Notes: generated from the sequence alone by a model not told the origin. A stretch of DNA of 64,000 bases from an uncultured Actinomycetota bacterium (GCA_963771835.1 CAVYVA010000006.1:36495-100494); one strand, 5' to 3'; shown: positions 1,214 to 19,892, counted from the stretch's first letter. Program-made: numbers and translations.

Positions 1214-3175
1214 ATGCCGGATGACCTCGACCCCTCCGAGCTCGTCGACGGCGCGCAGGCGATAGCAGCGCTGGCCCAGGACGAGGACCGCTTCCGGGCC
1301 GCCTTCGACGCGTTCCGAGCCTCGGACCGGGACTCGTTCCAGCGGCTGCTCGGCGAGCTCGGCCTGACCGAGCGCTGCGAGCTGGTGACCGAGTGGATCT
1401 GCAGCAAGGAGTGCGTGCTGCTGTGCCTGGAGCTGTGCGGTCCGCCGGTCGAGGGCGACCTGCCGGACCTGCGCGAGTTCGCCGAGGTCCTGGTCAAGGT
1501 CACCGGCGACGAGGAGCTGGTGGAGCGGCTGGCCGAGACCGTCGCCGCCCGCGACGTCGAGGGCTTCCGGTCACTGGTCGCCGAGCTCAAGATCGAGCGG
1601 TACTGCCACCTGCTCTGCCACTGGGTGTGCGCGGTGCGCTGCCGGCTGCTGCGCGAGATCGTCTGCGCGCCGGTGCCGGGCCCGGTCCGGTACCTCGAGG
1701 ACGAGCTCGCCGCCGCCGGCGCCGTCGTGGCCACCCTGGTCGCCGACAAGGAGGCGTTCGCGGTCGCCGAGAAGGCCGTGCTCGCCGGCAACTGCGACCT
1801 GGTCCGGGAGACGGTCGCGCGCCTGCGGCTGACCGACCACTGCGCGATCGTCTGCGAGTGGTTCTGCAGCTGGCGCTGCGTGCGCGTGTGCCGGCTGATG
1901 TGCCGCGGGTTCGACTTCCCGCAGGTCGACCTGTCGCTGGCCGAGGCCTTCGAGTTCGCGAAGGTCACGGCCCGGCTGGCGGCCGAGCCGGACGTCCTGC
2001 CGCGGTTGTCCGCCGCCGTGCAGGCGCAGGACGCACCGGCGTTCGAGGAGATCGTCACCAAGCTGGAGCTGGGCCGGTTCTGCATCCAGCTGTGCCACTG
2101 GATCTGCTCGTGGCAGTGCCACCGCTTCTGCCGCTGCGTGTGCCCGCCGGTGCTGCAGCCGTGGTTCACCCAGGTCGGCCACTTCGACATCTACGCCGAC
2201 ATCGACCCGGGCACCGGCCTGACCAACAAGGGCCTGAGCTACTCCGGCCTGTACTTCAACGGCGGCCCGGACTTCGCGTTCCACGGCTGCCTGGAGCTGC
2301 GCGGGTTCTGCCCGGCGGGGTCACCGATCGACGGGACGCCGATGAAGTACCGCTTCGTGCTCGCCGGCAGCGGCCTGCCGCTCACCGGGAGCCGCGTCTG
2401 CCCAGTGGACGCGGGCACCCGGCGGATCCTGTGGCCGGTCAACTCCAGCGGGGTCGCCGGGACCACGCAGGTCCTGACGTTCCAGTCGATCAGCATCGAG
2501 GGCGCACCGGTCGCGGACACTCCGCCGCCGGCCCCCGGCGACCCGTGGTTCGGGCCGGTCAAGCACGTGATCGCCCCGGACTCCGACGGCTGGATCCCGG
2601 TGGACCAGGACAGCGTGTCCGGAGGCTTCACCACGCTGGTGGGCTTCAACAGCACCGATCCGGTCCCCGGCGGGACGCCGCCCTCGCCGCCGCCCGTGGC
2701 CGGCTCGCCGGTCGCGACCGGCGACCAGAAGAACGGCGCCGACCTGGGCATCACGTTCGAGGCGACCAGGATCTCGTTGCCGCCGGGCCCGCCGGACTCC
2801 ACGAACTCGCTCGCAAAGATCCACATCAACAACTGGGCCGAGGTCAACCTGCTGGACATCACCGAGTTCCACTCCGGCGGCGGCACCGCGTGCACCGGGA
2901 TCACCACCGACCTGCACGTGGAGTACACCACCGACCACGAGCTCATGAAGGAGTGGGACGCGGTCATCACCAGCGCCGCGCTCACCCTGCCGGTGACGGT
3001 GGCCAGCGGGCCGACCGTGCCGGCGCCCAGGGGTGACGGCGCGATCGTCGCGGTGTCCACCACCGGGTTCAAACCCTGCTCGTACGTGGTGACGCTGAGC
3101 ACGCGGGCCGGGCTGACGGACGGACTCATCGACAACGTCGGGTGGAGCCGGCAGCTGACCTTCTGCGTGAAGTAA
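1214..3175 (+). CDS. Uncharacterised 653-aa protein: four ~78-aa helical repeats each ending in CxxxCxWxCxxxCxxxCxxxC, plus a beta-rich C-terminal domain
   Basis: Intact ORF, AGGAG RBS at 1201-1205, repeats visible by eye, 30 Cys counted. Confidence 0.9.
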   Translation: MPDDLDPSELVDGAQAIAALAQDEDRFRAAFDAFRASDRDSFQRLLGELGLTERCELVTEWICSKECVLLCLELCGPPVEGDLPDLREFAEVLVKVTGDEELVERLAETVAARDVEGFRSLVAELKIERYCHLLCHWVCAVRCRLLREIVCAPVPGPVRYLEDELAAAGAVVATLVADKEAFAVAEKAVLAGNCDLVRETVARLRLTDHCAIVCEWFCSWRCVRVCRLMCRGFDFPQVDLSLAEAFEFAKVTARLAAEPDVLPRLSAAVQAQDAPAFEEIVTKLELGRFCIQLCHWICSWQCHRFCRCVCPPVLQPWFTQVGHFDIYADIDPGTGLTNKGLSYSGLYFNGGPDFAFHGCLELRGFCPAGSPIDGTPMKYRFVLAGSGLPLTGSRVCPVDAGTRRILWPVNSSGVAGTTQVLTFQSISIEGAPVADTPPPAPGDPWFGPVKHVIAPDSDGWIPVDQDSVSGGFTTLVGFNSTDPVPGGTPPSPPPVAGSPVATGDQKNGADLGITFEATRISLPPGPPDSTNSLAKIHINNWAEVNLLDITEFHSGGGTACTGITTDLHVEYTTDHELMKEWDAVITSAALTLPVTVASGPTVPAPRGDGAIVAVSTTGFKPCSYVVTLSTRAGLTDGLIDNVGWSRQLTFCVK

Positions 3176-3178: not shown

Positions 3179-3475
3179 CTACCGGTCCAGGAGTCCCTCG
3201 ACGAGCTCGAGCACGCGGGTCCTGGGCACGCCGGCCAGCGCCGGCGCGGCATCCGGCGACGACCAGACGCGCTCGTGCAGGAAGCGGGCGAACGACTCCG
3301 CCGCGTCGACGGTGTCGAACTCGAGGTCGAGCATCAGGTAGCCGGCGTCGTCGAGCGGCCGGCGGATGGCGTGCGCGCGGACGCCCGCACCGGCCCGCAC
3401 CTCGGCGAAGCCGTCGAAAGCTGCCTTCCACGTGCCGTAGTCGGTGATCGCGTGCTCGATCCGCAAGGTGCTCAT
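3179..3475 (-). CDS. Small (98 aa) dimeric alpha+beta barrel / cyclase-like hypothetical protein
   Basis: MSTLRIEHAITDYGTWKAAFD...; ATG at 3475; divergent from the LuxR gene. Confidence 0.7.
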   Translation of the reverse strand: MSTLRIEHAITDYGTWKAAFDGFAEVRAGAGVRAHAIRRPLDDAGYLMLDLEFDTVDAAESFARFLHERVWSSPDAAPALAGVPRTRVLELVEGLLDR

Positions 3476-3553
3476 GGACCGCCACGGTAGGCCGGCCGCG
3501 GGCACCGCAGACATCCCAGATTCCTGGGGGCGGACGGCGCGTACGCTCGCGCC

Positions 3554-4654
3554 GTGCCGAGCCCGAGGACGGCGTCCAAGACCCTCGACCGGATCGAGGC
3601 GGTCGCCGGCCGGGCGGCCGGGGCCGCCGAGCTGCGGGCGGCGCTGCTGGATGTGCTGCGCCCGGCGATCGGCTTCGACGGGTACGTGTGGCTGCTGACG
3701 GACCCGGTCACCACGGTCGGCGCAGCCCCGCTCGCGGACCTGCCCGGCATCGCCCCGGCCGAGCTGCCGGGTCTGATCCGGGCCAGGTACACCAGCGGAG
3801 TCAGCCGCTGGACCGTGCTGACGCAGCAGCCGGACCCGGTGGCGCTGCTGGACTGCGCCGGCGTCGACCACCCGGGCGCGTCCGGGACCGGGCGGTCCGC
3901 GTGGGAGCAGCTGCTGGCCCGGTACGGGATCGGCGCGGTGGCCTCGACGGTGTTCGCCGACGCGTACGGCTGCTGGGGGTTCCTCGACCTGTGGCGCGGC
4001 GTGGCCCGCGCACCCTTCGACGAGGCCGACGCCGCGCTGCTCGCGGGCGCCGCCCCGTCCGTGACCGCCGCCCTACGCAGGTGCCAGGCCCGCACCTTCG
4101 TCGCGCCGGCGCGGCCGCACCGCAGTGACTTCGCTCCGGTCGTGCTGACCCTGGACGACGACCTGCGGATCGTCGGACGGACGGCCGCGTCACAGGACTG
4201 GCTGGACCGGCTGCTGCCCCCCGCGCCCGGCGTCGACGCGGTACCCGCGAGCGTGTTCAACGTGGCTGCGCAGCTGCTCGCCGCCGAGGCCGGCGTCGAC
4301 GACCACCCGGCCAGCTCGCGGACGCATCTGGGCGACGGGTTCTGGCTGACCCTGCGCGCGGCGCGGATGGCGTCCGCCGACGGCACCGACCCGATCGTCG
4401 TGAGCATCGAGGAGACCTCCGCCGTCGAACGGGTGGAGCTGTTCACCCGGGCGCACGGCCTCAGCGCGCGCGAGCACGAGCTCTTCGGACTGCTCGCCAC
4501 CGGCGCCGACACCCGCGCGATGGCTCGCCTGATGGGACTGTCCGAGCACACCGTCCAGGACCACCTGAAGTCGATCTTCGCCAAGACCGGGGCGCGCGAC
4601 CGAGTCACGCTGCTCTCGCGGGCGCTGGGCACCGGGCTCACCCCGGCTCCGTGA
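3554..4654 (+). CDS. GAF-like + LuxR-type HTH transcriptional regulator
   Basis: C-terminal LSAREHELFGLLATGADTRAMARLMGLSEHTVQDHLKSIFAKTG. Confidence 0.85.
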   Translation: MPSPRTASKTLDRIEAVAGRAAGAAELRAALLDVLRPAIGFDGYVWLLTDPVTTVGAAPLADLPGIAPAELPGLIRARYTSGVSRWTVLTQQPDPVALLDCAGVDHPGASGTGRSAWEQLLARYGIGAVASTVFADAYGCWGFLDLWRGVARAPFDEADAALLAGAAPSVTAALRRCQARTFVAPARPHRSDFAPVVLTLDDDLRIVGRTAASQDWLDRLLPPAPGVDAVPASVFNVAAQLLAAEAGVDDHPASSRTHLGDGFWLTLRAARMASADGTDPIVVSIEETSAVERVELFTRAHGLSAREHELFGLLATGADTRAMARLMGLSEHTVQDHLKSIFAKTGARDRVTLLSRALGTGLTPAP

Positions 4655-4718
4655 GCGCGCGGGACCTAGACTTCACGCGGGCAGACGGGGAGCTGCGTCA
4701 AGCCCTGGAGGGATCTGC

Positions 4719-5675
4719 GTGACGCCGACTCAGCTGCGCGCCTTCGCCGCAGTGGCCCGCCTGGGCTCGGTGAAGCAGGCCGCGGCCGAGCTCGACGTCT
4801 CGCAGGCCGCCGTCTCGCTGCACGTCGCGCACCTGCGCCGCGAGCTCGGCGACAAGCTGTTCATCCCCACCGCGGCGGGGCTGTCCTTCACCCCCGGCGG
4901 GCTGCGGCTGGCCAGCCGGGCGGCCGAGATCCTCGGCCTGCAGGACCGCACCGTGCTCGAGGTGAGCCAGGCCGGCAGCGAGCGGCGGCTGCTGCGGGTG
5001 GCCGCGTCGGCCCTGTTCGCCGAGCACGCGGCCCCGGGTCTGATCGAGCTGTTCGCCGACCGGGCGGACGACCTGGACGTCGAGCTCAGCAACCACAACC
5101 CGCACACCTTCGTCCCGCTCCTGCTCGCCCGGACCGTGGACGTGGCCATCGGACCGCAGCCCGCGAGCCTGGACCCGTCGATCGCGAGCACGCACTTCCT
5201 CAACTACCAGGTGGTGGCCGTGGCCAGCCCGGACCACCCCCTGGCGCGGGTCCAGCCGAGCTCCCACGAGCTGCGCGAGCAGACCTGGCTGCTGGGCCCG
5301 TCCGCCGTCGGCGAGGGCGGCGTCATCGCGAACCTGCTGCGACGGATCAACGTGCCGGAGGACCGTCAGCAGATCTTCCAGAGCCACGCTGCAGCGCTCG
5401 AGGAGGCCAAGCGGGGCAAGGGGATCGCGCTCGCCGTGTCGTTCGCCGTCTCGCAGGACCTGGCCACCGGCGACCTCAAGCGGGTGCCGGGACCGTTGCT
5501 GCAGGGCCAGGGCGGATGGAGCATCCTGACGCTGGCCGCAGGCAACGCGCCGCCCGCGGCGGCGGAGCTGAGCCGGTTCGTCACCACCCCGCGCGCGATC
5601 CAGGCGATGCTCCGCGGCACCGGGGTCACCGTGGGGCGGTTCAAGCCGTCCATCCACGTCACGCTCTGGAGCTAG
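4719..5675 (+). CDS. cutR: LysR-family regulator, CutR/Rv0377-like (CO dehydrogenase regulator)
   Basis: N-terminal LysR HTH TPTQLRAFAAVARLGSVKQAAAELDVSQAAVS; C-terminus PSIHVTLWS; abuts cox genes. Symbol inferred from context. Confidence 0.8.
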   Translation: MTPTQLRAFAAVARLGSVKQAAAELDVSQAAVSLHVAHLRRELGDKLFIPTAAGLSFTPGGLRLASRAAEILGLQDRTVLEVSQAGSERRLLRVAASALFAEHAAPGLIELFADRADDLDVELSNHNPHTFVPLLLARTVDVAIGPQPASLDPSIASTHFLNYQVVAVASPDHPLARVQPSSHELREQTWLLGPSAVGEGGVIANLLRRINVPEDRQQIFQSHAAALEEAKRGKGIALAVSFAVSQDLATGDLKRVPGPLLQGQGGWSILTLAAGNAPPAAAELSRFVTTPRAIQAMLRGTGVTVGRFKPSIHVTLWS

Positions 5676-5682: not shown

Positions 5683-8079
5683 TCAGATCGGCGGCCGGGG
5701 TCGGCCCTGCATGGCGTCCCACACCCGCGAGGGCGTCAGCGGCATGTCCGCGTGCCGGATGCCGAACGGCCTGAGCGCGTCGACGACCGCGTTCACGATC
5801 GCCGGCGGCGACCCCACCGTGGCCGCCTCCCCCACCCCCTTGGCCCCGATCGGGTGGTGCGGCGACGGGGTGACCGTGAACCCGGTCTCCCAGTCGGGCA
5901 CCTCGATCGCGGTCGGGATCAGGTAGTCCATCAACGAGCCGCCCAGGCAGTTCCCGTCGGCGTCGAACGCGATCATCTCCATCAGCGCCATGCCGACCCC
6001 GTCGGTCAGGCCTCGGTGCACCTGGCCCTCGATGATCATCGGGTTGATCCGGGTGCCGCAGTCGTCGACGGCGACGAACCGCCGCACCTTGACCTGCGCG
6101 GTGCCCGGGTCGATGTCGACCACGCAGATGTACGCGCCGAAGGGGTACGTGAGGTTGTCCGGGTTGTAGCAGATCTGCGCCTCCAGGCCGCCCTCGACGC
6201 CCTCGGGCAGGTCGCCGGCGCCATGCGCCTTCCGAGCGATCTCCTGGATCGTCACGGACGTCGACCGGTCACCGGTCACGCGGAACGCGCCCTTGTCCCA
6301 CACCAGGTCGGCCGGCGAGATCTCGAGCATGCCGGCGGCGATGAGCCGCGCCTTGTCCCGCACCTTGCGCGCGACCAGCACGGCCGCGGCGCCGGACACC
6401 GGCGTGGAGCGGCTGCCGTAGGTGCCGAGGCCGAACGGGGTCTGGTCGGTGTCGCCGTGGACCACCTCGATGTCCGCCGGTGGGATCCCGATCTCCTGGG
6501 CCACGATCTGCGCGAACGTCGTCTCGTGCCCCTGGCCCTGGGACTGCACCGACAGCCGCAGCGACAGCCTTGCCGGTCGGGTGCACCCGCAGCTCGCAGC
6601 CGTCGGCCATGCCCAGACCGAGGATGTCCATGTCCCGGCGCGGACCGGCGCCGACCGCCTCGGTGAAGAAGCGAGACGCCGATACCCATCAGCTCGCCGC
6701 GCTCGCGCCGCTGCGCCTGCTCGCGGCGCAGCTCGGTCGTAGCCGGCGATCCGCATCGCCTCGCGCATGGCCGGCTCGTAGTCGCCGGAGTCGTACACCC
6801 ACCCGGTCCTGGCCCGGTACGGGAACTGCTCGGGCCGGATGAAGTTCTTGATCCGCAGCTCCACCGGGTCCATGCCCAGCTCGTAGGCCAGGCAGTCGAC
6901 GATCCGCTCGACGAGGTAGACCGCCTCGGTGATCCGGAACGAGCAGGAGTACGCCACGCCGCCGGGCGCCTTGTTCGTGTAGACGGCGGTCATGGTGCAG
7001 TGAGGCGGCCTGCAGGTCGTAGCTGCCGGTGAACACGCCGAAGAAGCCGGCCGGGTACTTCACCGGCGCGGCCGTCCCGTTGAACGCGCCGTGGTCGGCG
7101 AGGACGTGCGCGCGCACCGCGAGGATGGTGCCGTCCCGGGTCGCCGCGATCTCGCCGCGCATGATGTAGTCGCGGGCGAAGGCCGTGCTGGTGAGGTTCT
7201 CCGAGCGGTCCTCCATCCACTTGACCGGCTTGCCGGTGAGCAGCGAGCCGACGATCGTGCAGACGTACCCCGGGTAGATCGGCACCTTGTTGCCGAACCC
7301 GCCGCCGATGTCCGGCGAGACGACCCTGATCTTGTGCTCGGGCAGCCCGGTCACCATCGCGTACAGCGTGCGGTGCGCGTGCGGCGCCTGGGTGGTCGAC
7401 CAGAGCGTCAGCCGGCCCTCGACGGCGTCGTAGTCGGCCACCGAGCCGCACGTCTCCATCGGGGCGGGGTGCACCCGCGGGTAGACCAGGTCCTGGCTCA
7501 CCACGACGTCGGCGGCGGCGAACACCGCGTCCGTGGCGGCTCGGTCTCCGGTCTCCCAGTCGAAGCAGTGGTTGTCGGACTTGCCGGGCAGGTCGTCGCG
7601 GATCACCGGGGCGTCGGGGTCGAGGGCCGTGCGCACGTCCACGACGGGTCGCAGCGGCTCGTACTCGACGTCGATGAGCTCCAGCGCGTCGCGCGCCGCG
7701 TACCGGTCCTCGGCGACGACGAACGCGACCTCCTGGCCCTGGAACCGCACCTTGTCGGTCGCCAGCACCGCCTGCACGTCGTCGGCGAGGGTCGGCATCC
7801 AGGCCAGCCCGCGCTCGGCGAGCATCGCCCCGGTCACGACCAGCGGACCTTCGGGTGCGCCTGCGCGGCGATGGTGTCGATGCTCAGGATCCGCGCGTGC
7901 GCCATCGGCGAACGCAGGATGGCCAGGTGCAGCATGCCCGGCAGCTGCACGTCGTCGCAGTACCGGCCGCGGCCGCGGATGAACCGCGGGTCCTCCTTGC
8001 GCAGCATCCGGCCGTAGCCGACGGGGTGCTGGTCGTTGTCGACGAACGCGGTCACCGGACCGCCCGTGCCCGCGGTCAC
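5683..8079 (-). CDS. coxL: Aerobic Mo-Cu CO dehydrogenase large subunit, form I, copy 1 (mycobacterial-like); several frameshifts
   Basis: [31 protein letters not shown], active-site [14 protein letters not shown] (6934-6954), [12 protein letters not shown]-terminal WDAMQGRPRPPI. Confidence 0.92.
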
Positions 8080-8607
8080 GACACGGCCTCGGCCTCTGAC
8101 TCGGACTCTCGACTCGGTCCCGGACGGGTGGAGGGCGGTCCGGGTGCCGGCCTCCTCCGCGGCCGCCCACTGCACCGAGCGAACGATGCTGGCGTACCCG
8201 GTGCACCGGCAGATCTGGCCGGAGATCGCCCGCCGGATCTCGGTGGCGGACGGGGTCGGGTTGCGGTCCAGCAGCGCCCGCGCGGTCATCAGCATCCCGG
8301 GGGTGCAGAAGCCGCACTGCAGACCGTGGCACTGCATGAACCCGCGCTGGACCGGGTCGAGCACGCCGTCGTGCTCGAGCCCCTCGACCGTGCGCACCTC
8401 GTGACCGCCGGCCATCGCGGCCAGCACGGCGCAGGACTTCACCGGCTCGCCGTCGAGCCACACCACGCACATGCCGCAGTTGCTCGTGTCGCAGCCCCAG
8501 TGCGTGCCGGTCAGGCCGAGATCGTCGCGCAGGAAGTGCACGAGCAGCAGCCGGCCCTCGATCTCCCGGGTCACCTCGTCGCCGTTGACCGTCATGCTCA
8601 CCAGCAT
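8076..8607 (-). CDS. coxS: CO dehydrogenase small (2x[2Fe-2S]) subunit, copy 1
   Basis: [26 protein letters not shown]; stop reconstructed as a GTGA overlap with the coxL start. Confidence 0.9.
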
Positions 8608-8609
8608 CG

Positions 8610-9489
8610 TCAGCCCCCCGCCTGTCGGATCCGCGCGACCGAGCGGCGCAGCGCGCGTCGGGTCAGCTCACGGGCCAGGTGCCGCTTGTAGTCCGCGCTG
8701 CCGCGCTGCGTCCGTCACCGGGCTGCAGCTGCGCGCCGCGATGTCGCCGGCCTGGGCGTACAGGTCCTCGGACGGGGTCTGGCCGACCAGCAGCTCGGAG
8801 ACCGCCGGGAGGCCGGCGGTGTCCGGCCCCACCGCCGCCAGACCCACCCGCGCATCGGCGATCAGACCGTGGTCCATCCAGACCGCCGCACCGGCCGAGA
8901 CCACCGCCCAGTCCCCGGCCCGCCGCTCGACCTTCTCGTACGCGCTCGAGCCGCCCGGGCGCACCGGGAAGCGGATCTCGGTGAGCATCTCGGCGACGCC
9001 GACCGCGGTCTCGTACGGGCCGCGGTGGAACTCCTCCATCGAGACGACCCGCTCGCCGCCGGTGCCCCGGATCACGCAGCTGGCGTTCAGGGTGGTGCAG
9101 ACCGCGGACAGGTCCTCCGAGGGGTCGGCCTGGCACAGCGAGCCGCCCAGCGTGCCCCGGTTGCGGACCGGCGGGTCGGCGATCACCTGCTCCGCGTCGG
9201 CGAAGATCGGGAACGCCTCGGCGAGCTCGGCCGACTCGAGCAGCTCGCGGTGCCGGGTCATGGCGCCGATCCGGATCCACCGCGGCTCGACCGTGATGTA
9301 GCCGAGCTCGCCGTGCAGGTCGTTGATGTCGATGAGGTACTCGAAGTTGGCCAGCCGCAGCTTCATCATCGGCAGCAGGCTCTGCCCGCCGGCGACCAGC
9401 CGCGCGGTCTCGCCCAGCCGGTCCAGCAGCCCGATCGCCTGGTCGACGCTCGTGGCCCGCTCGTACTCGAACGGCGCCGGCACCTGCAT
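8610..9489 (-). CDS. coxM: CO dehydrogenase medium (FAD) subunit, copy 1; frameshift near C-terminus
   Basis: MQVPAPFEYERATSVDQA, AGGQSLLPMMKLR, VRNRGTLGGSLC, KVERRAGDWA. Confidence 0.92.
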
Positions 9490-9530
9490 CCCCGGAGGCT
9501 AACGGCCGGGCGGGGCGCTCGCCGAGTGAC

Positions 9531-9548
9531 CTAAGCGATGACTTATTC
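9531..9548 (+). promoter_or_regulatory. Putative CutR/LysR operator CTAAG-N6-CTTATTC between the divergent cox operons
   Basis: ctaagcgatgacttattc; resembles the mycobacterial CutR inverted repeat TTAAG-N6-CTTAA; second copy at 19967-19984. Confidence 0.6.
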
Positions 9549-9636
9549 AGCCGTTGCGGGGGCCGGACCCGCCGGGCAGTATGTCCCCGCATCACCGGCG
9601 GCGCCGAACGGCGCCGTCCCAGCGAAGGGCGTCGCG

Positions 9637-9894
9637 ATGGCGGTCGAGTCGAGCGGGCACAGCCAGGGGCAACCCGCGCCTGTACGAGCTGATCGAGAAC
9701 GCGCCGAAGACCGGCAAGAGCCCGACCGTCTGGGCCTGGCCGCAGCTGATCGACGTACCTCAAGGTCGCCGGCCAGCCGGTCCAGGGGCCCTGGCCGCCG
9801 CACCAGCAGCCGCGTCCCGACCCCGAGGAGGAGTCGCTGCCGGTCGCCGTGCCCGACCCGCACTCGCCCCGCCACCAGGCCCGCACAGGCCTGA
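9637..9894 (+). CDS. Small hypothetical protein (~85 aa) leading cox operon 2; reconstructed across about 2 frameshifts
   Basis: MAVESSGH..GNPRLYELIENAPKTGKSPTVWAWPQLIDYLKVAGQPVQGPWPPHQQPRPDPEEESLPVAVPD; GAAGGG upstream; GC3-biased codons. Confidence 0.55.
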   Translation: MAVESSGHSQGQPAPVRADRERAEDRQEPDRLGLAAADRRTSRSPASRSRGPGRRTSSRVPTPRRSRCRSPCPTRTRPATRPAQA

Positions 9895-9931
9895 ACCGCC
9901 TGAACCGCAGCCATCCAGAGAGGCGGCTCGG

Positions 9932-10809
9932 ATGTATCCGTCCCGGTTCCGCTACGAGGCCCCGCGCTCGCTCGACGAGGCGATCGGCCTGCTGCACCAG
10001 GGCGCCGGCGAGGCCAAGGTGCTCGCCGGCGGGCAGAGCCTGGTCCCGCTGCTGAAGCTGCGCTTCGCCGCGCCGGAGCTGCTGGTCGACATCAACAACA
10101 TCCCGGGCTGGACTACCACCGGGTGGACGCCGACGGCACCATCCACGTCGGCGCGCTGTGCCGGCACGCCGACCTGGAGCGCTCGACCATCCTCGCCGCC
10201 CGGCAGCCGACGATGGCCGCCGCCGCCCCGCTGATCGCCGACCCGATCGTGCGCAACCGCGGCACCCTGGTCGGCTCGCTGTGCCACGCCGACCCGCAGG
10301 GCGACTGGGCGTCGGTGGTGACCGCGCTCGGCGGGCACGTCGTCGCCCAGGGACCCGGCGGCCGGCGCACCATCCCGGTCGCGGAGTTCGTCAGCGGCCC
10401 GTTCCAGAACGTGCTCGCCTACGACGAGATCGCCGTCGAGGCCGTCATCCCGGCGTCCGAAGGGCACCCCCGCCGGCGGCTACCTCAAGCTGGAGCGGCG
10501 GGTCGGCGACTTCGCCACCGCCGGCGTGGCCGTGGCGATCGAGACCTCGGGCGACCTGGTCACCCGGGCCGGCATCGCCCTGACCGGCGTCGGCGGCTCG
10601 ACCATCGACGCCACCGAGGCCGGGCAGGCGCTGGTGGGCCAGGCCGCTGACGCGCGGACAGCATCGGCCGGGCCGCCGACCTGGCCGCGCAGGCGGCCCG
10701 GCCCCGGACCGACCACCGCGGCAGCGCGGAGTACAAGCGGCACATCGTGCACACGTTCGTCGTGCGCATCCTGACCCGCATCACCGAGTCCGCGGAGAGG
10801 GCGGCCTGA
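9932..10809 (+). CDS. coxM: CO dehydrogenase medium (FAD) subunit, copy 2; frameshifted
   Basis: [56 protein letters not shown]. Confidence 0.9.
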
Positions 10810-10810
10810 C

Positions 10811-11369
<559 letters not shown>

Positions 11370-11373
<4 letters not shown>

Positions 11374-13763
11374 CGCAGGCACTGGACGAGATCAAGATCG
11401 GCGGGATGGGCGCGAGCCGCAAGCGCGTCGAGGACAACCGCTTCATCCGCGGCCGGGGCAACTACGTCGACGACATCGTGCTGCCCGGCATGCTGCACAT
11501 GGAGATCCTGCGCAGCCCGCTGGCGCACGCCCGGATCAGGTCGATCGACACGAGCAAGGCGTGGGACATCCCCGGCGTCCGGCTGGTGCTGACCGGCGAG
11601 ATGATGGCGACCCGCAACCTGGCCTGGATGCCGACGCTCTCCTACGACACGCAGGCCGTGCTGGCCACCGACAAGGTGCGCTTCCAGGGCCAGGAGGTCG
11701 CCTGCGTCATCGCCGACGACCCGTACATCGCCAAGGACGCCTGCGAGGCGATCGTCGTCGACTACGAGCCGCTGCCGGTGATCGTCAACCCGACCCAGGC
11801 GATGGCCGCCGGCGCGCCGCTGATCCGCGACGACAAGGAGAACCAGCACGACAACGTCGTCTACGACTGGGAGGTCGGCGACCAGGGCGGGCACCGACCG
11901 GGCGTTCGAGCAGGCCGACGTGGTCTCCAAGCTCGAGCTGCACTACCCGCGCTCGCACCCGTCCCCGATCGAGTGCTGCGGGTCGATCGCCGACTTCAAC
12001 CGGGCGACGTCCAAGCTGACCGTCTACATGACCACCCAGGCGCCGCACATCATCCGGGCCGCGGTCGCGCTGGTCGCCGAGCTGCCCGAGCACATGATCC
12101 GGATCGTCTCGCCCGACCTCGGCGGCGGCTTCGGCAACAAGGTGCCGGTCTACCCCGGCTACGTCATGTCGATCCTCGCCTCGATCCTGCTCGAGCGGCC
12201 GGTGAAGTGGATCGAGGACAAGTCCGGCAACCTGATCTCGACCGGCTTCGGCCGCGACGTCTACCTGCACGGGCGAGATGGCGCTGCGCCGGGACGGCAA
12301 GATCCTCGGCGTCCGGATGCACACCGACGCCGACCACGGCGCGTTCTTCTCCGACGCCCAGCCGAGCAAGTTCAAGATCGGCCTGATGCACTCGGCGTTC
12401 TCCTGCTACGACATCCCGGCCGCGCACCTGACCGCGCGCGGCATGTACACGAACAAGGCGCCGGGCGGGGTCGCCTACCGGTGCTCGTTCCGGGTCACCG
12501 AGGCGATGTTCTTCCAGGAACGGATGGTGCAGGCGGCCGCCGACGACCTCGGCATGGACCAGGCCGAGTTCCGGCGGATGCAACTTCGTCCGCGACGACG
12601 ACTTCCCGCACCGCACGCCGTTCGGCTTCCTCACCGACTCCGGCCAGTACGGCAAGTGCCTGGACGTCGGGCTGGAGGCCGTCGGCTACCAGGACTTCCT
12701 CGCGCAGAAGGAGGAGGCCCGCAAGCGCGGCCGCCTGCTCGGCATCGGCATCTCGACGATGACCGAGCCGCTCGGCGCCGGCAACAGCCGCGAGTACGAC
12801 ATCCTCGGCATCAAGATGTTCGACTCGGCCGAGCTGCGGGTGCACATGACCGGCAAGGCGATCCTGCGCACCGGCGCGAAGACCCAGGGCCAGGGGCACG
12901 AGACGACCTGGGCGCAGATCGTCGCCCACGAGCTCGGCATCCCGGCCGAGGACATCGTCGTCGAGGAGGGCGACACCGACACCGCGCCGTTCGGCATGGG
13001 CACCTACGCCTCGCGCAGCACGCCGGTCGCCGGCGCGGCCGTCGCGATGGTGTCCCGCAAGGTCCGGGCCAAGGCGCGCAAGCTCGCCGCGCACCTGCTC
13101 GAGGTGTCCGAGGAGGACGTCGAGTGGGAGCTCGGCCGCTTCTACGTGCGCAGCGCGCCCGGACCGCGGCGTCACCATCCAGGAGTGCGCGATGGCGGCG
13201 TACAGCAACATGCCCGACGGCATGGAGCCGGGCCTGGAGAACGTCGCCTACTACGACCCGCCGAACCTGACCTGGCCGTTCGGCTGCTACATCGTCACCG
13301 TCGAGGTCGACCCGCAGACCGGCGTGTGGGACGTGCTGAGCGTGGTCGCGGTCGACGACTGCGGCGTGCGGATCAACCCGATGATCGTCGAGGGCCAGAT
13401 CATGGGCGGGCTGACCGAGGCGTTCGCCATGGCCAGCATGCAGTTCATCACCTTCGACGCCGAGGGCAACTGCGTCGGGTCCAACTACATGGACTACCTG
13501 CTGCCGACCGCGTGGGAGACGCCCGGGTTCGAGCTGCACGAGGTCGTCACGCCCGTGCCCGCACCACCCGATCGGCGCCAAGGGCGTCGGCGAGTGCGCG
13601 ACCGTCGGCGGCCCGGCGGCGTTCGTCAACGCGGTGCATGGACGCGCTCAAGGACACCGGCGTGCGCAACATCGACATGCCGCTGCTGCCGGACCGCGTG
13701 TACGAGGCGCTCACCGAGCGGCACGACGTCTCCGGCGCACCGCCGGTCCGGTCGGACGACTGA
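11370..13763 (+). CDS. coxL: Aerobic Mo-Cu CO dehydrogenase large subunit, form I, copy 2 (divergent from copy 1); several frameshifts
   Basis: [42 protein letters not shown] (12473-12493), [22 protein letters not shown]; GAGGAG RBS before GTG. Confidence 0.92.
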
Positions 13764-14765
13764 TGGAGGCGGGCGGCGCGGCGATGGAGGGCTGGGACGT
13801 CGTCGAGCGGGCCGGCGAGCTGGCCCGGCGCGGCGAGGAGTTCGCGCTGGCCACCGTGGTGTGGCGGCAGGGCCCCTCCTCCGGCCAGCAGGGCTCGCGG
13901 GCGATCGTCACCGCGAGCGGTCAGCTGTACGGCTGGATCGGCGGCGCCTGCGCCGAGCCGGTCGTGATCCGCGAGGCCCAGCGGGTGATCGCCGAGGGTC
14001 AGCCCCGGCTGCTGCTGCTCGGCACCCCCGAGCAGTTCGGCGCCGCCGTGCCGGACGGGATGCGGGTGATCCCGATCTCCTGCCAGAGCGAGGGAGCCCT
14101 GGAGGTCTACGTCGAGCCGGTCCTGCCCGGCGCCGCACCTGGTGGTCGTCGGGCGCTCGCCGATGGCGCACACGCTCGCCGACCTGGCCGGCGGCGCTGG
14201 GCTGGCGCACCGACCTCGTCGACGGGGCGGACTTCTCCGCGGCGGCGGTGGACGCCCGCTCGATCGTCGTGGTCGCCACCCAGGGCCACGGCGACGAGGA
14301 GGCCGTCGAGCAGGCGGTGGCCGGCTTCCCGGCCTTCCTCGGGCTGGTCGCGTCCCGCCGCCGCGGCGAGGCGGTCCTGGGCTACCTCGCCGACCGTGGC
14401 GTGCCGCACGAACCTGCTGGACCGGGTGCGGGTGCCGGTCGGCCTCGACCTGGGCCATACCTCGCACCGCGAGATCGCGGTCGCGATCCTCGCCGAGCTG
14501 GTCCAGCTGCGGGCCGCCGGCGCGCTCGTCCCCGACCAGTCCGGCGAACCGGCAGAGCAGGGCGAGCGGTCGAGCACGGCGAGCGGGCAGCGACCGCGCC
14601 AGGACAGGCGGTCGACCCGGTCTGCGGGATGACGGTGCCGGCCGACCGGTCCAGCCGGCCGTTCGAGCACGCCGGCGTCACCTACTACTTCTGCTGCGCC
14701 GGCTGCCGCCACGCCTTCGAGAAGGATCCCGCCTGCCTACCGTCCCCGAGGAGGTCCGATGCTGA
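13763..14765 (+). CDS. XdhC/CoxF-family Mo-cofactor maturation protein with C-terminal YHS domain; frameshifted
   Basis: ALATVVWRQGPSS..GWIGGACAEP, VVVATQGHGDE, RVPVGLDLG; C-terminal VDPVCGMTV..YYFCCAGCRHAFEKDP. Confidence 0.85.
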
Positions 14766-15345
14766 TCAAGACCGACTTCGAGGTGGCCGAGTCCGTCGGA
14801 CAAGGTGTGGAAGTTCTTCGACGACATCCCCCAGGTGGCCGCCTGCCTGCCCGGCGCGGAGCTGACCGAGGACCTCGGCGACGACACGTACCGCGGCAAG
14901 GTCGCGATCCGGATGGGCCCGGTCAAGATGCAGTTCGCCGGCACCGCCACGATCACCGAGCGCGACGAGACCGCCAAGCGCATCGTGGTCGACGCCGCCG
15001 GCGCCGAGGAGAAGGGCCGCGGCCAGGCCGCGATGCTGGTCACCGCGCACCTGGTGCCGGCCGGTCGCGGCACCAAGGTCGAGGTGGTCCAGGACCTGCA
15101 GCTCTCCGGCGCCGCCGCCCAGTACGGCCGCGGCATGATCTCCGACGTCACCGCCGTGCTGATGCGCGACTTCGCCGCGAACATGCAGCGGCGGATCGGC
15201 GCCATCGACCGGGGCCTGTCCCCGGACCAGGTCGGCGCGGCCGCGCCGGCCAGCGGCTTCGCCATCGGGCTGCGGGCGATGCGGATGGCGCTGACCCGGG
15301 TCTTCAGGCGCTTCTTCGCTGCCCTACCAGCCCAACCCGAGCTGA
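14759..15345 (+). CDS. coxG: CoxG (SRPBCC/START fold) with C-terminal amphipathic extension; frameshifts at both ends
   Basis: VWKFFDDIPQVAACLPGAEL, QLSGAAAQYGRGMISDV; ends FRRFF-LPYQPNPS* after correction. Confidence 0.85.
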
Positions 15346-15357: not shown

Positions 15358-15614
15358 ATGGTGCTGTGGTGGATCGGCAACGCGCTGCTGCTGCTGGCCG
15401 TCGTGCCCGTGCTCGTCGCCCTGCTCAACCGGCGTGCTGGCCGCGCTCGAGCGCATCCGCGGGGCGTCCGACGACATCCTCGCCGGCGGCGTCGCGCTGG
15501 TCGGGGAGCTGGACGAGCGTGCCCGAGATGCTGGCGACCACCGACCGGACCATCGACGACGTGGCCGTCGGCGCCGTCCGCTACGCGGGCTCCGTCGCGA
15601 AGCTGCTCGGCTGA
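15358..15614 (+). CDS. Small membrane coiled-coil protein A (~85 aa); reconstructed
   Basis: GAGGAGG RBS; MVLWWIGNALLLLAVVPVLVALLNRVLAALERIRGASDDILAGGVALVGELD-VPEMLATTDRTIDDVAVGAVRYAGSVAKLLG*. Confidence 0.7.
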
Positions 15615-15632
15615 GCAGGGAGGAGAACCGTC

Positions 15633-15861
15633 ATGCCGGCCGCCGCCTGGGTCACCATGGTCATCTCCGCGCTGATCATCCGGCCGCAGCCCTCGGGCTG
15701 CTGCGGGTCATCATCCACCTCGACGTGGTGCGCCAGACGCTCGCGAACGTCATCGGCGGCGTCGCAGGTCGTCGCCGACGCAGACCCGCACCGTCCCCGA
15801 GGTCCTGCCCTCGGTCAACGCGAGCCTCAAGCCCGTCCGCGACTTCTGCGAGACGGTGTGA
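15633..15861 (+). CDS. Small membrane coiled-coil protein B (~75 aa); reconstructed
   Basis: GGAGGAG RBS; MPAAAWVTMVISALII-AAALGLLRVIIHLDVVRQTLANVIGGV-QVVAD-QTRTVPEVLPSVNASLKPVRDFCETV*. Confidence 0.7.
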
Positions 15862-15880
15862 CCCGGCGAGAGGAGCCGAC

Positions 15881-16143
15881 GTGCTAGTCGCAGCGAGCAC
15901 CTCGACCACCGGCTGGGTGGTCGGCTACACGATCGGGATCGTCGTGGTGCTGGTGGTCGTCGCCCTGGTGGTGCCGATCCTGTGCTCGCGCACGCGATCG
16001 GCAACGAGGCGAAGGTCATCGACGACTCCCTCACCGAGTCCGTGCACAACACCGCGGCGCTGAAGGAGCTGCACACGACGATCGACTACGCCGAGGTCAT
16101 CGTGGCCGGGCTCAACCGCGGACGCACCAGGCTGGGAGGCTGA
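15881..16143 (+). CDS. Small membrane coiled-coil protein C (~87 aa); reconstructed
   Basis: AGGAG RBS, GTG start; MLVAASTSTTGWVVGYTIGIVVVLVVVALVVPIL-LAHAIGNEAKVIDDSLTESVHNTAALKELHTTIDYAEVIVAGLNRGRTRLGG*. Confidence 0.7.
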
Positions 16144-16144
16144 C

Positions 16145-16445
16145 ATGGACGCACTGTCCGCCGCCGAGCTGACCTCGACCCAGAACAACCTGTGGTGGGG
16201 CGCGATCATCGGCGGTGTCGTCGTCGTGCGTCGCCGTCGCCGCGCTGCTCACGATCCTGGTCGTCCTGGTCCGGACGATCGACCGGCGGGTCGTGCAGGT
16301 CCGGGACACGCTGCAGGCCGCGGCGGCCAACACCGCCGACACGGCGCTGATCGCCGAGACCGCCGACGGCGTCGACGCGGTCCTCGCCGAAGGCCTGGAG
16401 CACCACCTGTTCCTGGGCCGCGTCCTCGGGAAGGTGAGGTCGTGA
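16145..16445 (+). CDS. Small membrane coiled-coil protein D (~100 aa); reconstructed
   Basis: Starts 1 nt after the stop of C; MDALSAAELTSTQNNLWWGAIIGGVVVV-VAVAALLTILVVLVRTIDRRVVQVRDTLQAAAANTADTALIAETADGVDAVLAEGLEHHLFLGRVLGKVRS*. Confidence 0.7.
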
Positions 16446-16449
16446 CGCG

Positions 16450-16851
16450 ATGGTCGTGCTGTCCGTCGATCGACATCGTCCTGCTCATCGCCGGGCTGGC
16501 GTTCTACCTCTTCGTCGTGGGCGACCCAGCTCACCCGGATCGCCACGAACCTCGAGGAGTGCGCCGAGCTGGTCCGCACGATCGTCGCGCAACGCCGAGG
16601 TGATCCGACCCGGCGTCGAGCACATCAACCGCACCGGCGGCGTCGTGGCCGGCGCCCTGCCGCTGCTGTACGGGATGGCCGAGGGCATCGTCGTCGGCGT
16701 CACGCCGCGTCCCGAGCCCCCGGTCGAGCGGCCGCCGGCCCGGCCCGCCTCCGGCCGGCGCCGGTCGCGGCTGCACGACGGCGTCGGCTACGAGCCGGTG
16801 GCCGTAGCGCGCGATCGCCCACGGGGTCGTCCGGGTCGCGGCCGGTGGTGA
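16450..16851 (+). CDS. Small membrane coiled-coil protein E (~120-130 aa, Pro/Arg-rich tail); reconstructed, 3' end uncertain
   Basis: MVVLSV-IDIVLLIAGLAFYLFVVG-TQLTRIATNLEECAELVRTIV-RNAEVIRPGVEHINRTGGVVAGALPLLYGMAEGIVVGVTPRPEPP... Confidence 0.65.
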   Translation: MVVLSVDRHRPAHRRAGVLPLRRGRPSSPGSPRTSRSAPSWSARSSRNAEVIRPGVEHINRTGGVVAGALPLLYGMAEGIVVGVTPRPEPPVERPPARPASGRRRSRLHDGVGYEPVAVARDRPRGRPGRGRW

Positions 16852-17260
16852 GCGGTCCGGTCGTGGGCGCCCGGTACTCGCCGATCCACTCGTCCTTCCA
16901 CGACCGGTCGTACTGCTGCTCGTTGCAGCTCGGGCTGGTAGATCGCGCACAGCTCCTGCGCGATCTGCTCGCGGTGCGAGGCAGCCCGCCGGGCACCTCG
17001 TAGGTGCAGATGTAGACCTTCCAGCGGTCGCCGGCCCGGCTCGACCCAGCAGGCGGCGCGCCGGGTGGCCGAACGGGAACCGCTCGCGCGGACAGGTCCT
17101 CGGAGTGCCCGACGTAGATGACCGCGTACCGGTCCGGCTTGGTCTGCGGGTCCGGCTTGTAGACGATCGCGTAGACCGCGGGGACCGCCGGCGGCGTCCA
17201 GCCGCCGAGGACCCGCGGCCCCTCGAACGGGTAGCCGGCGAGCGAGCCGAGCCGGATCAC
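16800..17260 (-). CDS. GIY-YIG-fold-like hypothetical protein; frameshifted, 3' end approximate
   Basis: MIRLGSLAGYPFEGP..PAVYAIVYK..VIYVGHSEDLS..HREQIAQELCAIYQPSCNEQQYD. Confidence 0.65.
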
Positions 17261-17546
17261 TCGTCGCGTCGTCCGTCGTCCGTCGTCCTCGCTCGACGGC
17301 CACCGCCCGGACGATCGGCCACGGCGGCAGGCCGGCCCTGGCCGCGGCGCCGGCGAAGTCCGCCGTCGCCCGCTCGACGGCCTGCTCGCGGGCGTCCGCC
17401 TCGACGACGAGCTGGGCGCCGTAGCGCGTGGTGCCGATGCCGGAGGCGATCCCGCCGTGCGCGGCGACCGCGTCCGCCAGCTCGACCACCTCCTCGAGCA
17501 TCACCTCGCGGTCGCCCTCGGCGACCACCGCCACGCTCCACCTCAC
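17257..17546 (-). CDS. Small hypothetical protein (~96 aa) in the coxDE operon
   Basis: GGAGGA RBS then GTG; MRWSVAVVAEGDREVMLEEVVELADAVAAHGGIASGIGTTRYGAQLVVEA..; probable GTGA overlap with the next gene. Confidence 0.65.
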
Positions 17547-17555: not shown

Positions 17556-18691
17556 CTAGCCCAGCCCGGGCAGCAGCGCGGCGAACTCTTCCAGGCTGCG
17601 CAGGTCGTGGCCGGACAGCAGCAGGTCGACGTGCGGCGCGGCCACCATCATGCCGAGCGTGCTCGGCCGGAACTGCGCGTCGCTCGCCCTTGTGCGGGTT
17701 CAGCCACACCACCCGATGGCTCAGCCTCGACAGCCGCTCCATCGCCGTGGCCAGCACGGCCGGGTCGCCGCGGTCGAGACCGTCCGAGCAGATCACCACG
17801 ATCCCGCCCCGGCACACGCCGCGCCGGCCCCAGTCCCGCACGAACGCCTGCAGCGAGTCGCCGATCCGGGTCCCGCCCTCCCAGTCGAAGACGGCCCTGG
17901 CGGCGCGTTCCAGGGCGTCGTCGGGACGGCGGTGCTCCAGCTCCCTGGTGATCCGGGTCAGCCGGGTGCCGAAGCAGAACACCTCGACCCGGGCCGCCGC
18001 CCGGCTGGTGGAGTACGCGAACTGCAGCAGGTTGCGCGAGTAGTCCGCCATCGACCCGGAGACGTCCAGGATGAGGACCAGCGGCCGTGGCCGGAGCCGG
18101 CGCCGGCGCCAGTAGCAGCTCGGCCGGCTCGCCGTGCGTGCGCATCGTCTCGCGCACCGTCCGGCGCAGGTCGGGCGCTCGCCCGCGCGAGCGGGCGCCG
18201 ACCGTCCGGCGGGTGCGGCGGCGCGGCGGCGTCAGCCGGATCCGCGCCATGATCCGGCGCAGCGCAGCCAGCTCCTCGGGGGTGCAGGCCGCGAACGACT
18301 TGTTCTTGCAGCGCGTCCGCGTCCGAGGCGATCAGGCCGAGCTCGGCCTCGCTGCTCGCGGGCGGTCCCGCCCCGGCTCGGTCTCCGGGACCTGCAGGAC
18401 CGCAGCGGTCTCGACCCTGGCCCGGATCGTCGGCCGGACCGGCTCGGGGAGCCCGTCGGCCTCGTCCAGGAAGAACCGCCGGAACACCCGGTCGTACACC
18501 GGGATCTGGTCGTGCCGGGTCACCATCGTGGTCCGCCCCGCCCAGTACAGGTCGAGCAGGTCGGTCGGGTCCAGCGGGGCCATCGCCGCGCAGTACGTCA
18601 GCACGTCGCCGGACCCGACCGGCAGCCCGGCCGAGCGCAGCTCGCGGGCGAAGTCGACGAGCAGGGCGACGAACGACGCGTCGTCAGGCAC
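17556..18691 (-). CDS. coxE: CoxE-type VWA-domain protein; frameshifted
   Basis: FARELRSAGLPVG, LVLILDVSGSMADYSR (MIDAS-like), EVFCFGTRLTRIT, WEGGTRIGDSL, VVICSDGLDRG. Confidence 0.88.
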
Positions 18692-19564
18692 CGGAGGCGA
18701 TCTCTTCCAGGTTGTCCCGCACCAGGTCGAGGTCGTCGCGCTCCTTCACCACGGCGCCGAGCGTGTCGGCGACGGTCCTGGCGTCCAGCTCGGTCTCGCC
18801 GAGCACGTCGAGCGTGCGCACCCAGTCGATCGTCTCGGCGACCCCGGGCGGCTTGGCCAGGTCCATGGACGCGCAGCCGGTTCACCGCGGCGACGACCTT
18901 CCTGGCCAGCGTCCTGCGGACACGCCCGGCGCCCGGAGCCAGGATGATCTCCACCTCGCGCTCGGCGCTGGGGTAGCCGACCCAGTGGTACAGGCAGCGG
19001 CGCTTGAGCGCGTCGTGCAGCTCGCGGGTGCGGTTGGAGGTGAGCACGACGATCGGCGCGCTCTCGGCGCGTGATCGTCCCGATCTCCGGGATGCTGATC
19101 TGGAAGTCCGAGAGCACCTCGAGCAGGAACGCCTCGAACTCGTCGTCGGCGCGGTCCACCTCGTCGATGAGCAGCACCGCCCGGTTCCCGGCGCGGACCG
19201 CCTCGAGCAGCGGCCGCTCGAGCAGGAACTTCGGGCCGAACAGCTTGTCGACGGCCGCGTCGTCCTCGACGTGCCGCTCGGACAGCGCCCGGATCTGCAG
19301 CATCTGCCGCGCGTAGTCCCACTCGTACAGGGCCTGGTTGGTGTCGATCCCCTCGTAGCACTGCAGGCGGATCAGCTTGCGGCCGAACACCGCGGCCAGC
19401 ACCTTGGCGACCTCGGTCTTGCCGACCCCGACCTCGCCCTCGAGCAGGATCGGCCGATCCAGCGACAGCGCGACGAACAGGGCCGTGGACAGCCCGCGGT
19501 CAGCGAGGTAGCCGCCGTCGCGCAGGATCTCGGTCAGCCCGCCGACGGTCTCCGGACGATCCAT
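18684..19564 (-). CDS. coxD: CoxD-type MoxR AAA+ ATPase; frameshifted
   Basis: LLEGEVGVGKTE, RLQCYEGID, VLLIDEVDRADDEFEAFLLE, LTSNRTRELHDALKRRC. Confidence 0.92.
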
Positions 19565-19616: not shown

Positions 19617-19892
19617 TCAGTCGGCCGGCGAGGAGCCGAGGACCAGGTCGCGGATGCTGCCGCCCGCCGTGCTCAGCTTGCCCTCGCGCGCCAGCTTGCT
19701 CCGCCAGGCCTCGCGCAGGTCGCTGCCCGGCTCGGCCATGCCGTCGAAGGTGATCTCCTTCATGTTCTTGCACGACTTCTTCGGCTCGAAGGTGGCGTCG
19801 AGGTCCTCGCTCGTCTGACCCTGCGCCGCCCACACCGCACGGAGCACCTCGACCGGCTCGTCAGCCTCGTGCGCATCCGCGTGCTGGGTCAT
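19617..19892 (-). CDS. Small hypothetical protein (91 aa) leading the coxDE operon
   Basis: GAGAGGA RBS; MTQHADAHEADEPVEVLRAVWAAQG..PKKSCKNMKEITFDGMAEPGSDLREAW. Confidence 0.65.
   Translation of the reverse strand: MTQHADAHEADEPVEVLRAVWAAQGQTSEDLDATFEPKKSCKNMKEITFDGMAEPGSDLREAWRSKLAREGKLSTAGGSIRDLVLGSSPAD

Follow-up and report, generated by a model that had tools for sequence, protein, structure and literature searches.

Two form I carbon monoxide dehydrogenase operons of different clades in a probable actinobacterial supercluster

Aerobic oxidation of carbon monoxide (CO) ranks among the major sinks of this gas in the atmosphere; the model enzymes for the process come from organisms with a single CO dehydrogenase (CODH). 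We analysed a 64,000-nucleotide stretch of DNA from an uncultured soil bacterium of the Actinomycetota (hereafter the window; G000:C6:36495-100494, from a 3.82-Mb genome, G000, in 8 contigs with ~72% G+C and 82% completeness) that carries two sets of CODH structural genes, coxM1-coxS1-coxL1 on the minus strand and coxM2-coxS2-coxL2 on the plus strand, back to back. Comparison with related genomes makes it very probable that both sets encode intact form I enzymes, that these belong to different clades, and that their juxtaposition is genuine and conserved. Taken as a whole, the locus is probably best explained as a conserved actinobacterial "double CODH" supercluster of two parts. The enzymes belong to known clades, and it is their arrangement that appears to be new. 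The predicted structural genes are listed below, with positions counted within the window and those of coxS1 projected from the intact gene of a same-genus sister genome (G001).

5683-8055, minus strand: coxL1, large subunit of an actinobacterial-clade form I molybdenum-copper (Mo-Cu) CODH, with the loop AYSCSFR (MDILGLGMADGCELRVH)
8076-8607, minus strand: coxS1, [2Fe-2S] small subunit, with Fer2 and Fer2_2 domains
8610-9489, minus strand: coxM1, FAD-binding medium subunit, with FAD_binding_5 and CO_deh_flav_C domains
9932-10809, plus strand: coxM2, FAD-binding medium subunit of the mixed-2 enzyme, identified by its Pfam domains
10811-11333, plus strand: coxS2, [2Fe-2S] small subunit, identified by its Pfam domains
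11370-13763, plus strand: coxL2, large subunit of a mixed-2-clade form I Mo-Cu CODH, with the loop AYRCSFR

Two form I enzymes and the junction between them

Both CoxL proteins contain an AYxCSFR loop with the Cu-ligand cysteine, and the gene order is M-S-L in both operons. A preliminary description of this DNA had assigned AYSCSFR to a mycobacterial-like CoxL on the minus strand and AYRCSFR to a clearly different CoxL on the plus strand; both loops, and the two peptides that it quoted, are present in the translations. The Pfam domains of both CoxLs (Ald_Xan_dh_C/MoCoBD_1/MoCoBD_2) and of the M and S subunits are as expected, and identity between the operons is 55% for L, 59% for S and 43% for M. 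Against the form I profile TIGR02416 (cut-off 991 bits), the intact G001 orthologs score 1386.5 bits (CoxL1) and 1092.4 bits (CoxL2); the window copies match this profile only in pieces because of frameshifts (see below). The best matches of the CoxLs in the Protein Data Bank (PDB) are the CoxL subunits of Mycobacterium smegmatis, Hydrogenophaga pseudoflava and Oligotropha carboxidovorans. CoxL1 scores 1527 bits against the M. smegmatis structure 8UEM_A and is 85% identical to M. smegmatis CoxL over its first 383 residues, while CoxL2 scores 961, 924 and 910 bits against the three enzymes in the same order.

A CoxL tree was built with the labelled references of Cordero et al. 2019 (Table S3, PMC6794299), truncated at ~400 residues, and rooted on form II. 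Form I and the sequences with the loop AYRGAGR are split at a Shimodaira-Hasegawa-like approximate likelihood ratio (SH-aLRT) support of 100, and both CoxLs lie inside form I. CoxL1 is placed in the actinobacterial clade (SH-aLRT 97), whose 45 rows include all six labelled references (M. smegmatis, Rhodococcus, Saccharomonospora and others), and CoxL2 groups with the "Mixed 2" reference of Amycolatopsis rubida (SH-aLRT 100; 82% identity over 385 residues). It counts against the second assignment that it was obtained with one labelled reference, truncated at ~400 residues. CoxL2-type proteins are very common and well conserved, with 88-93% identity in metagenome-assembled genomes (MAGs) of Acidimicrobiia and Actinomycetes. 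The Mixed 2 clade includes Streptomyces thermoautotrophicus, Amycolatopsis rubida, Thermocrispum agreste and Nocardioides sp. JS614 (Table S3, PMC6794299); for the first of these, growth on CO and uptake of ambient CO have been recorded, and our literature search found no solved structure or published kinetics for any Mixed 2 member. With these loops, profile scores and tree positions neither copy falls outside form I, an outcome that the preliminary description had considered, and its proposal of isoenzymes of different lineage is borne out by the phylogeny. Both operons are thus predicted to encode form I Mo-Cu CODHs that oxidize CO at a CuSMo centre. Below we use type 1 for the actinobacterial-clade enzyme and mixed-2 for its partner. 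Elsewhere in the genome, a coxS-L-M-G operon (G000:C4:740036-744379) encodes a CoxL-like protein with the loop AYRGAGR and 697 bits against TIGR02416, and is therefore of form II.

In the window assembly all six coxMSL genes are split over several frames. Their numerous frameshifts, together with a genome completeness of just 82%, would fit decaying pseudogenes or a back-to-back junction created by chimeric assembly, a reading that we consider highly improbable for the following reasons. G001, which has 95% nucleotide identity to the window and is collinear with its positions 1-23645, contains all six genes intact, and coxL1 is also intact in L111, a third assembly of the genus. Relative to G001, there are 5 indel columns in coxL1, 11 in coxL2, 8 in coxM2 and 19 in coxS1, and 128 indel events in 21.4 kb altogether, of which 76 are 1-bp insertions in the window; they are spread over the whole ~21 kb without link to homopolymers. 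The indel rate across the assembly is ~1 per 170 bp relative to G001, and the essential gene rpoB (G000:C2:798541-801841) is split into at least four frames here and is a single frame in G002, another genome of this genus. If one disregards the indels relative to G001, the six genes contain no stops and retain 93-98% amino-acid identity (97-98% for the CoxLs), and the ratio of nonsynonymous to synonymous substitution rates (dN/dS) is 0.076 for CoxL1 and 0.084 for CoxL2. Since the G001 genes are intact, the 1-bp indels random, rpoB broken, stops absent and dN/dS low, the frameshifts are to be read as long-read assembly errors and neither copy as a pseudogene; the true inactivation of one copy, another outcome raised in the preliminary description, does not hold. 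Intact orthologs and purifying selection predict that both enzymes are functional. As essential genes are split across G000, any pseudogene call in this genome needs an indel caveat. We also note that G001 itself shows a milder form of the same indel problem.

The junction is equally well documented by synteny with other assemblies, which led us to drop the chimera reading. G001 is collinear with the window over 23.6 kb including the junction, and the 3.85-Mb contig of L111 has the same layout. A scan of species-representative genomes with CoxL2 yielded 80 loci, 65 of them with enough upstream flank, and type-1 coxMSL adjoins the mixed-2 operon in 30 of these 65 informative loci of Actinomycetota; the identical junction is thus seen in ~30 independent assemblies, and a chimera across 9.5-9.9 kb, the remaining reservation of the preliminary description, does not apply. 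Among the 28 loci with a long coxL1 match, 26 are divergent and 2 co-directional. The pair is carried by Micromonosporaceae, Streptosporangiaceae, the isolates Actinoallomurus acaciae and Planosporangium flavigriseum, and a Nocardioides MAG, and the same lineages cluster in both subunit trees, which indicates that the pair has been co-inherited, in at least two large lineages. The two distinct form I operons are therefore indeed back to back, and recurrently so in other actinobacteria.

Two architectures can be distinguished. Variant A, that of the window, is found in five Micromonosporaceae-type loci, whose CoxL1 forms one clade with that of the window's genus (SH-aLRT 99), and variant B, the larger and Streptosporangiaceae-like group, has a different LysR gene (35% identity) between the operons. 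Within the genus, G002 has a solitary type-1 operon only, of another subclade and at a different locus, without the mixed-2 enzyme. In a further genome, G320 (L120, C581, 959-3746), a type-1-type LysR gene and an extra XdhC gene stand directly upstream of the first open reading frame (ORF) of the mixed-2 operon, and coxL1, of the serine type considered below, is on a separate contig ending in coxM1; the arrangement could reflect a break in the assembly or represent a third architecture.

A stripped type-1 operon, its regulator and the maturation genes

The genes and repeat elements around the two structural operons are as follows.

4719-5675, plus strand: LysR-type regulator, an intact 318-aa ORF convergent with coxL1
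9532-9548, no strand: Box 1 (TAAGCGATGACTTATTC), inverted repeat TAAG-N6-CTTA, candidate LysR operator
9637-9894, plus strand: leader ORF of ~83 aa, unannotated, first gene of the mixed-2 operon, frameshifted here (MAVESSGHSQGNPRLYELIENAPKTGKSPTVWAWPQL...GQPVQGPWPPHQ)
13784-14757, plus strand: XdhC/CoxF-like putative molybdenum cofactor chaperone with a C-terminal YHS/TRASH domain, frameshifted here, located by tblastn with the Planosporangium ortholog
14793-15341, plus strand: coxG (SRPBCC, quinone-shuttle type) of the mixed-2 cluster
15358-16807, plus strand: small membrane proteins TMa-TMd, directly after coxG
16807-17546, minus strand: two conserved ORFs at the end of the coxDE operon, function not assigned, no Pfam family matched
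17556-18691, minus strand: coxE (VWA_CoxE), frameshifted here
18684-19564, minus strand: coxD (MoxR/AAA ATPase), mixed-2-linked lineage, frameshifted here
19617-19892, minus strand: conserved ORF of ~90 aa at the head of the coxDE operon
19967-19983, no strand: Box 2 (TAAGGAAATGCTTATTC), upstream of the coxDE operon

The mixed-2 structural genes are accompanied by one and the same module in all informative loci, with or without a type-1 operon. Its forward part contains the leader ORF, an XdhC fused to YHS, CoxG and small membrane proteins, and its convergent operon reads orf-coxD-coxE-orf-orf, sometimes followed by a second XdhC. Because this module is constant with mixed-2 regardless of type 1, the single local accessory set belongs to the mixed-2 cluster. 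The closest relatives of CoxL1 with alanine at the active-site position discussed below (87% identity) are found in Streptosporangium, Angustibacter luteus and Streptomyces sp. GMY02, in all cases as solitary clusters of the order coxMSL-xdhC-(mocA)-coxD-(coxG)-coxE followed by a convergent LysR gene, and the window LysR, 65-72% identical to the LysR proteins that end these clusters, is their ortholog. The solitary operon of G002 likewise has its own xdhC-coxD-coxE. Since the solitary relatives carry the accessory block and end in the same type of LysR, the type-1 operon of the window is, judged by these relatives, a canonical cluster minus its xdhC-coxD-coxG-coxE block that has retained its own LysR. 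Type-1 operons of variant B weigh against a general form of this reading, as they retain their own coxD-coxE beside a mixed-2 cluster; pairing therefore does not generally go with accessory-gene loss. The two parts of the proposed supercluster would then be a complete mixed-2 cluster (forward leader-coxM2-S2-L2-xdhC::YHS-coxG-membrane proteins plus convergent orf-coxD-coxE-orfs) and a stripped-down actinobacterial-clade coxM1-S1-L1 that would have kept its LysR and lost its accessory block.

The fusion of XdhC to YHS is seen in the Planosporangium ortholog, where Pfam recognizes XdhC_CoxI, XdhC_C and YHS. In the window protein (13784-14757) the YHS/TRASH metal-binding domain is a candidate for a copper-handling step in building the CuSMo site. 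In G002, the XdhC of the solitary type-1 operon aligns to the Planosporangium fusion through residue 316 of 322 and so appears to carry the same C-terminal domain; no YHS match was obtained in the XdhC proteins of three other solitary type-1 clusters.

The LysR protein has LysR-family matches in NCBIfam, and its L111 ortholog is annotated with HTH_1 and LysR_substrate. The inverted repeat TAAG-N6-CTTA occurs in exactly two copies in the 3.82-Mb genome, of which Box 1 lies 43 bp from the start of coxM1 and 89 bp from the start of the leader ORF. Among the ~80 loci compared, the repeat is at the same two places in every locus with a LysR gene and is absent from the LysR-less loci of the Acidimicrobiia type; in solitary type-1 clusters it is found ~100 bp upstream of coxM. 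Because it is unique to the two cox promoter regions and tracks LysR, we consider it a candidate LysR operator, and it is reasonably likely that three transcription units form one regulon. A single LysR acting at the two boxes would then co-control the divergent structural operons and the coxDE operon. It speaks against this that a simple scan found no sigma-70-like promoter in the intergenic region. A terminator scan of the same region gave nothing either.

Whether the type-1 and mixed-2 enzymes share one maturation set, as the preliminary description had proposed, appears to us evenly balanced. The statement that only one set of XdhC, CoxG, CoxD and CoxE is present stands within the 64-kb window and fails beyond it, where unlinked CoxD/CoxE/XdhC and CoxG paralogs occur. 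The presence of one local set and the loss of the type-1 block favour sharing, in which Mo-cofactor, sulfur and copper would reach the type-1 apoenzyme through accessory proteins encoded in trans, the adjoining mixed-2 set being the simplest source. That set is itself mixed-2-linked, however, and the unlinked paralogs could serve type 1 instead, so that sharing is no more than plausible. Several observations weigh in the latter direction. An unlinked coxD-coxE-xdhC-mocA set (G000:C1:271968-275933), embedded among ribA, ribH, hisE and hisG, is found in all three genomes of the genus, and its CoxD groups weakly with the type-1-linked CoxDs, as their distant sister on a long branch (SH-aLRT 91). 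An orphan type-1-like coxG (G000:C2:621738-622373; L115:4736-5374, minus strand), situated beside a methyltransferase gene and far from cox genes, is kept in the three genomes of the genus, G001 and G002 included; its product has a C-terminal membrane anchor and is 57% identical over its full length, anchor included, to the CoxG of a Streptomyces type-1 cluster, compared with 41% between the two CoxG types.

These genes would allow for no sharing at all, with type 1 matured by the C1 set and coupled to quinone through the orphan CoxG on C2, and with adjacency to the mixed-2 cluster reflecting co-regulation or simple accretion. We regard this as a possible but somewhat doubtful alternative. G002 has a C1-type set as well, in addition to a type-1-linked xdhC-coxD-coxE, and for this reason the set looks, within the genus, like housekeeping for other Mo-hydroxylases; moreover, its neighbours are ribA, ribH and his genes and not cox genes. 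Planosporangium, with the same architecture, lacks a type-1-like third CoxG and has two CoxG genes only, one mixed-2-linked and one, at 48%, near another CoxD. Box 2, finally, puts the mixed-2-linked coxDE under the same candidate operator as coxM1. The C1 coxD-E-xdhC genes were also considered as a displaced type-1 set; this was not supported, as they are equidistant (58-59%) from both linked lineages, also occur in G002 and lie among rib/his genes.

The gap of ~440 bp from which the operons were said to diverge is correct as a start-to-start distance (442 bp). It is not empty, as it contains the leader ORF, and the true intergenic DNA measures 147 bp. The leader ORF recurs in every informative mixed-2 locus (60-84% identity) and is called as a gene in L111; 38 columns are invariant among 30 sequences, and its tail is rich in proline. 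It matched no Pfam or NCBIfam family, and its AlphaFold2 model is of low confidence, with a predicted local distance difference test score (pLDDT) of 66.6 and a predicted template modelling score (pTM) of 0.31. This locus thus flags an unannotated and highly conserved protein of mixed-2 clusters.

Serine in the type-1 enzyme and a possible division of labour

The high-affinity CODH of M. smegmatis (Ms) has Ala380 where the Afipia enzyme has Arg387, and a second gas channel that Ala237 opens and Leu490 narrows (PMC12202499). According to Kropp et al. 2025, alanine at Ms 380 is "universally present" in the actinobacterial clade (PMC12202499). At Ms 237, 490 and 380, CoxL1 has Ala, Leu and Ser and CoxL2 has Ile, Ile and Arg, so that CoxL1 departs from the alanine of its clade at Ms 380, and CoxL2 has the arginine that marks Mixed 2. 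Serine at this position corrects the published claim of universal alanine.

Serine was found in 26 type-1 sequences, namely those of the window, G001 and L111, 22 others beside a mixed-2 cluster and one same-genus sequence on a 4-kb contig; all come from lineages in which type 1 adjoins a mixed-2 cluster. Alanine is present in all ten type-1 sequences of related genomes, for none of which the available sequence shows a neighbouring mixed-2 operon, in each of the three solitary clusters inspected, and in 117 of the 120 nearest homologs of a collection of 5.8 billion proteins, the other three being from this genus. Across 401 genomes sampled evenly from the class, only G000, G001 and G320 show the Ser-coding pattern; G320 also encodes a mixed-2 CoxL. 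Four type-1 operons (L036, L090, L102 and L109) adjoin a mixed-2 operon and yet keep alanine. The Ser sequences form two separate clades, and a single Ser clade, a group named after the tree had been seen, is rejected by the approximately unbiased (AU) test (p = 0.0008). Association of serine with pairing beside a mixed-2 cluster is hence suggestive and not established, since two independent origins are a small number. We searched the two Ser lineages for other substitutions convergent with the Ala-to-Ser change and found none convincing; the only candidates were position 82 (K to R) and one N-terminal column of poor alignment.

More speculatively, type-1 CODHs beside a mixed-2 cluster might repeatedly go from Ala to Ser at Ms 380, in the second sphere of the pyranopterin, and be able to shed their maturation genes, becoming a hitherto unrecognized, specialized "partner" isoenzyme, an idea that we rate as rather unlikely. 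If true, active-site assembly or kinetics of the partner would be adapted to working alongside the mixed-2 system and depending on it, and the pair would be a CO counterpart of the multiple-affinity hydrogenases of mycobacteria.

Independently of this idea, the supercluster that we propose would have its two isoenzymes divide labour. Judged by homology, the type-1 enzyme, which resembles that of M. smegmatis, would be the high-affinity scavenger of atmospheric CO, and its mixed-2 partner belongs to the same clade as the carboxydotroph S. thermoautotrophicus. A kinetic division of labour of this kind is quite possible but falls somewhat short of probable. The preliminary description likewise supposed that the two might differ in CO affinity, O2 regime or electron acceptor coupling. 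The two enzymes may instead be redundant, the pair having arisen incidentally as genes were transferred horizontally into a cox "hot spot". In keeping with this, cox clusters are mobile in this group, as G002 illustrates with its other type-1 subclade at another locus and its lack of a mixed-2 enzyme, and atmospheric CO oxidizers occur in all clades (Cordero et al. 2019, PMC6794299). Redundancy nevertheless seems improbable in view of the strong purifying selection on both CoxLs and the co-inheritance of the pair in at least two large lineages, and because the enzymes differ at sites that the M. smegmatis structure paper links to catalysis and gas channels (Ser versus Arg at Ms 380, Ala versus Ile at Ms 237); the recurrent Ala-to-Ser change in type-1 enzymes beside a mixed-2 cluster also argues against it. 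RuBisCO is encoded in all three genomes of the genus, with a full-length large subunit in G001 and G002 and a frameshifted gene in G000 at C4:72024-72824, which makes CO-supported CO2 fixation possible.

The pair is widespread and co-inherited, has a candidate operator in common and faces a single local accessory set, which suggests that many soil Actinomycetota may run two CODHs as a unit. The locus offers a natural system for asking why one cell keeps two CO-oxidizing enzymes, and raises the questions of which enzyme acts at atmospheric and which at elevated CO, whether CoxD, CoxE and CoxF act across clades, and what the Ala-to-Ser change does near the pyranopterin.

Comparison with known systems and neighbouring genes

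Regulation of CODH genes by a LysR-type protein has a precedent in Mycobacterium sp. JC1, where CutR activates duplicated and near-identical cutBCA genes. There, as here, a LysR-type regulator is encoded beside form I structural genes; in contrast to the JC1 duplicates, the CoxLs of the window are 55% identical and belong to different clades, and the operator is a candidate. The closest characterized relative of the type-1 enzyme, CoxSML of M. smegmatis (8UEM; PMC6794299, PMC12202499), is of the same clade at ~85% identity, and shares with it Ala237 and Leu490, the M-S-L order and a cluster that ends in a LysR gene. It differs in that CoxL1 has Ser for Ala380 and that the type-1 operon, without an xdhC, coxD, coxG or coxE of its own, adjoins another form I cluster in divergent orientation. 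CoxL2 resembles the Mixed 2 clade (PMC6794299) in its grouping with A. rubida and its canonical AYRCSFR loop.

The coxMSLDEFG cluster of O. carboxidovorans (PDB 1N5W) matches the window in the order of its subunit genes and in the classes of accessory protein that it encodes (CoxD AAA ATPase, CoxE with a von Willebrand factor A (VWA) domain, XdhC-like CoxF, and CoxG). However, it is of the proteobacterial clade and consists of one cluster for one enzyme, unlike the locus described here, where two structural operons face a single local accessory set that is divided between two convergent operons.

According to a 2026 survey (PMC13203968), the majority of carriers possess only one coxMSL. Two form I operons in one genome are known from S. 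thermoautotrophicus UBT1, where they are not described as adjacent (PMC4735515), and Nocardioides sp. JS614 is listed under both clades (Cordero Table S3, PMC6794299). These two organisms are like ours in having two AYxCSFR coxL genes per actinobacterial genome; the papers on them report no adjacency, stripped type-1 operon, shared operator or Ser variant. In the literature we found no description of adjacent dual form I operons (a fused supercluster), of the stripped type-1 operon, the box, the Ser variant or the leader ORF, nor of the XdhC::YHS fusion and the small membrane proteins of the mixed-2 cluster.

To the left of the LysR gene, the window encodes a Cys-ladder protein (1214-3175) and a GerE-type regulator (3444-4669) that are confined to the genus (G001, L111). 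Since both are absent from the other 80 mixed-2 loci compared, they are not part of the CODH supercluster. On the other side, ~330 bp of G001 are missing from the window at ~21331-21339, in an alignment that is otherwise collinear.

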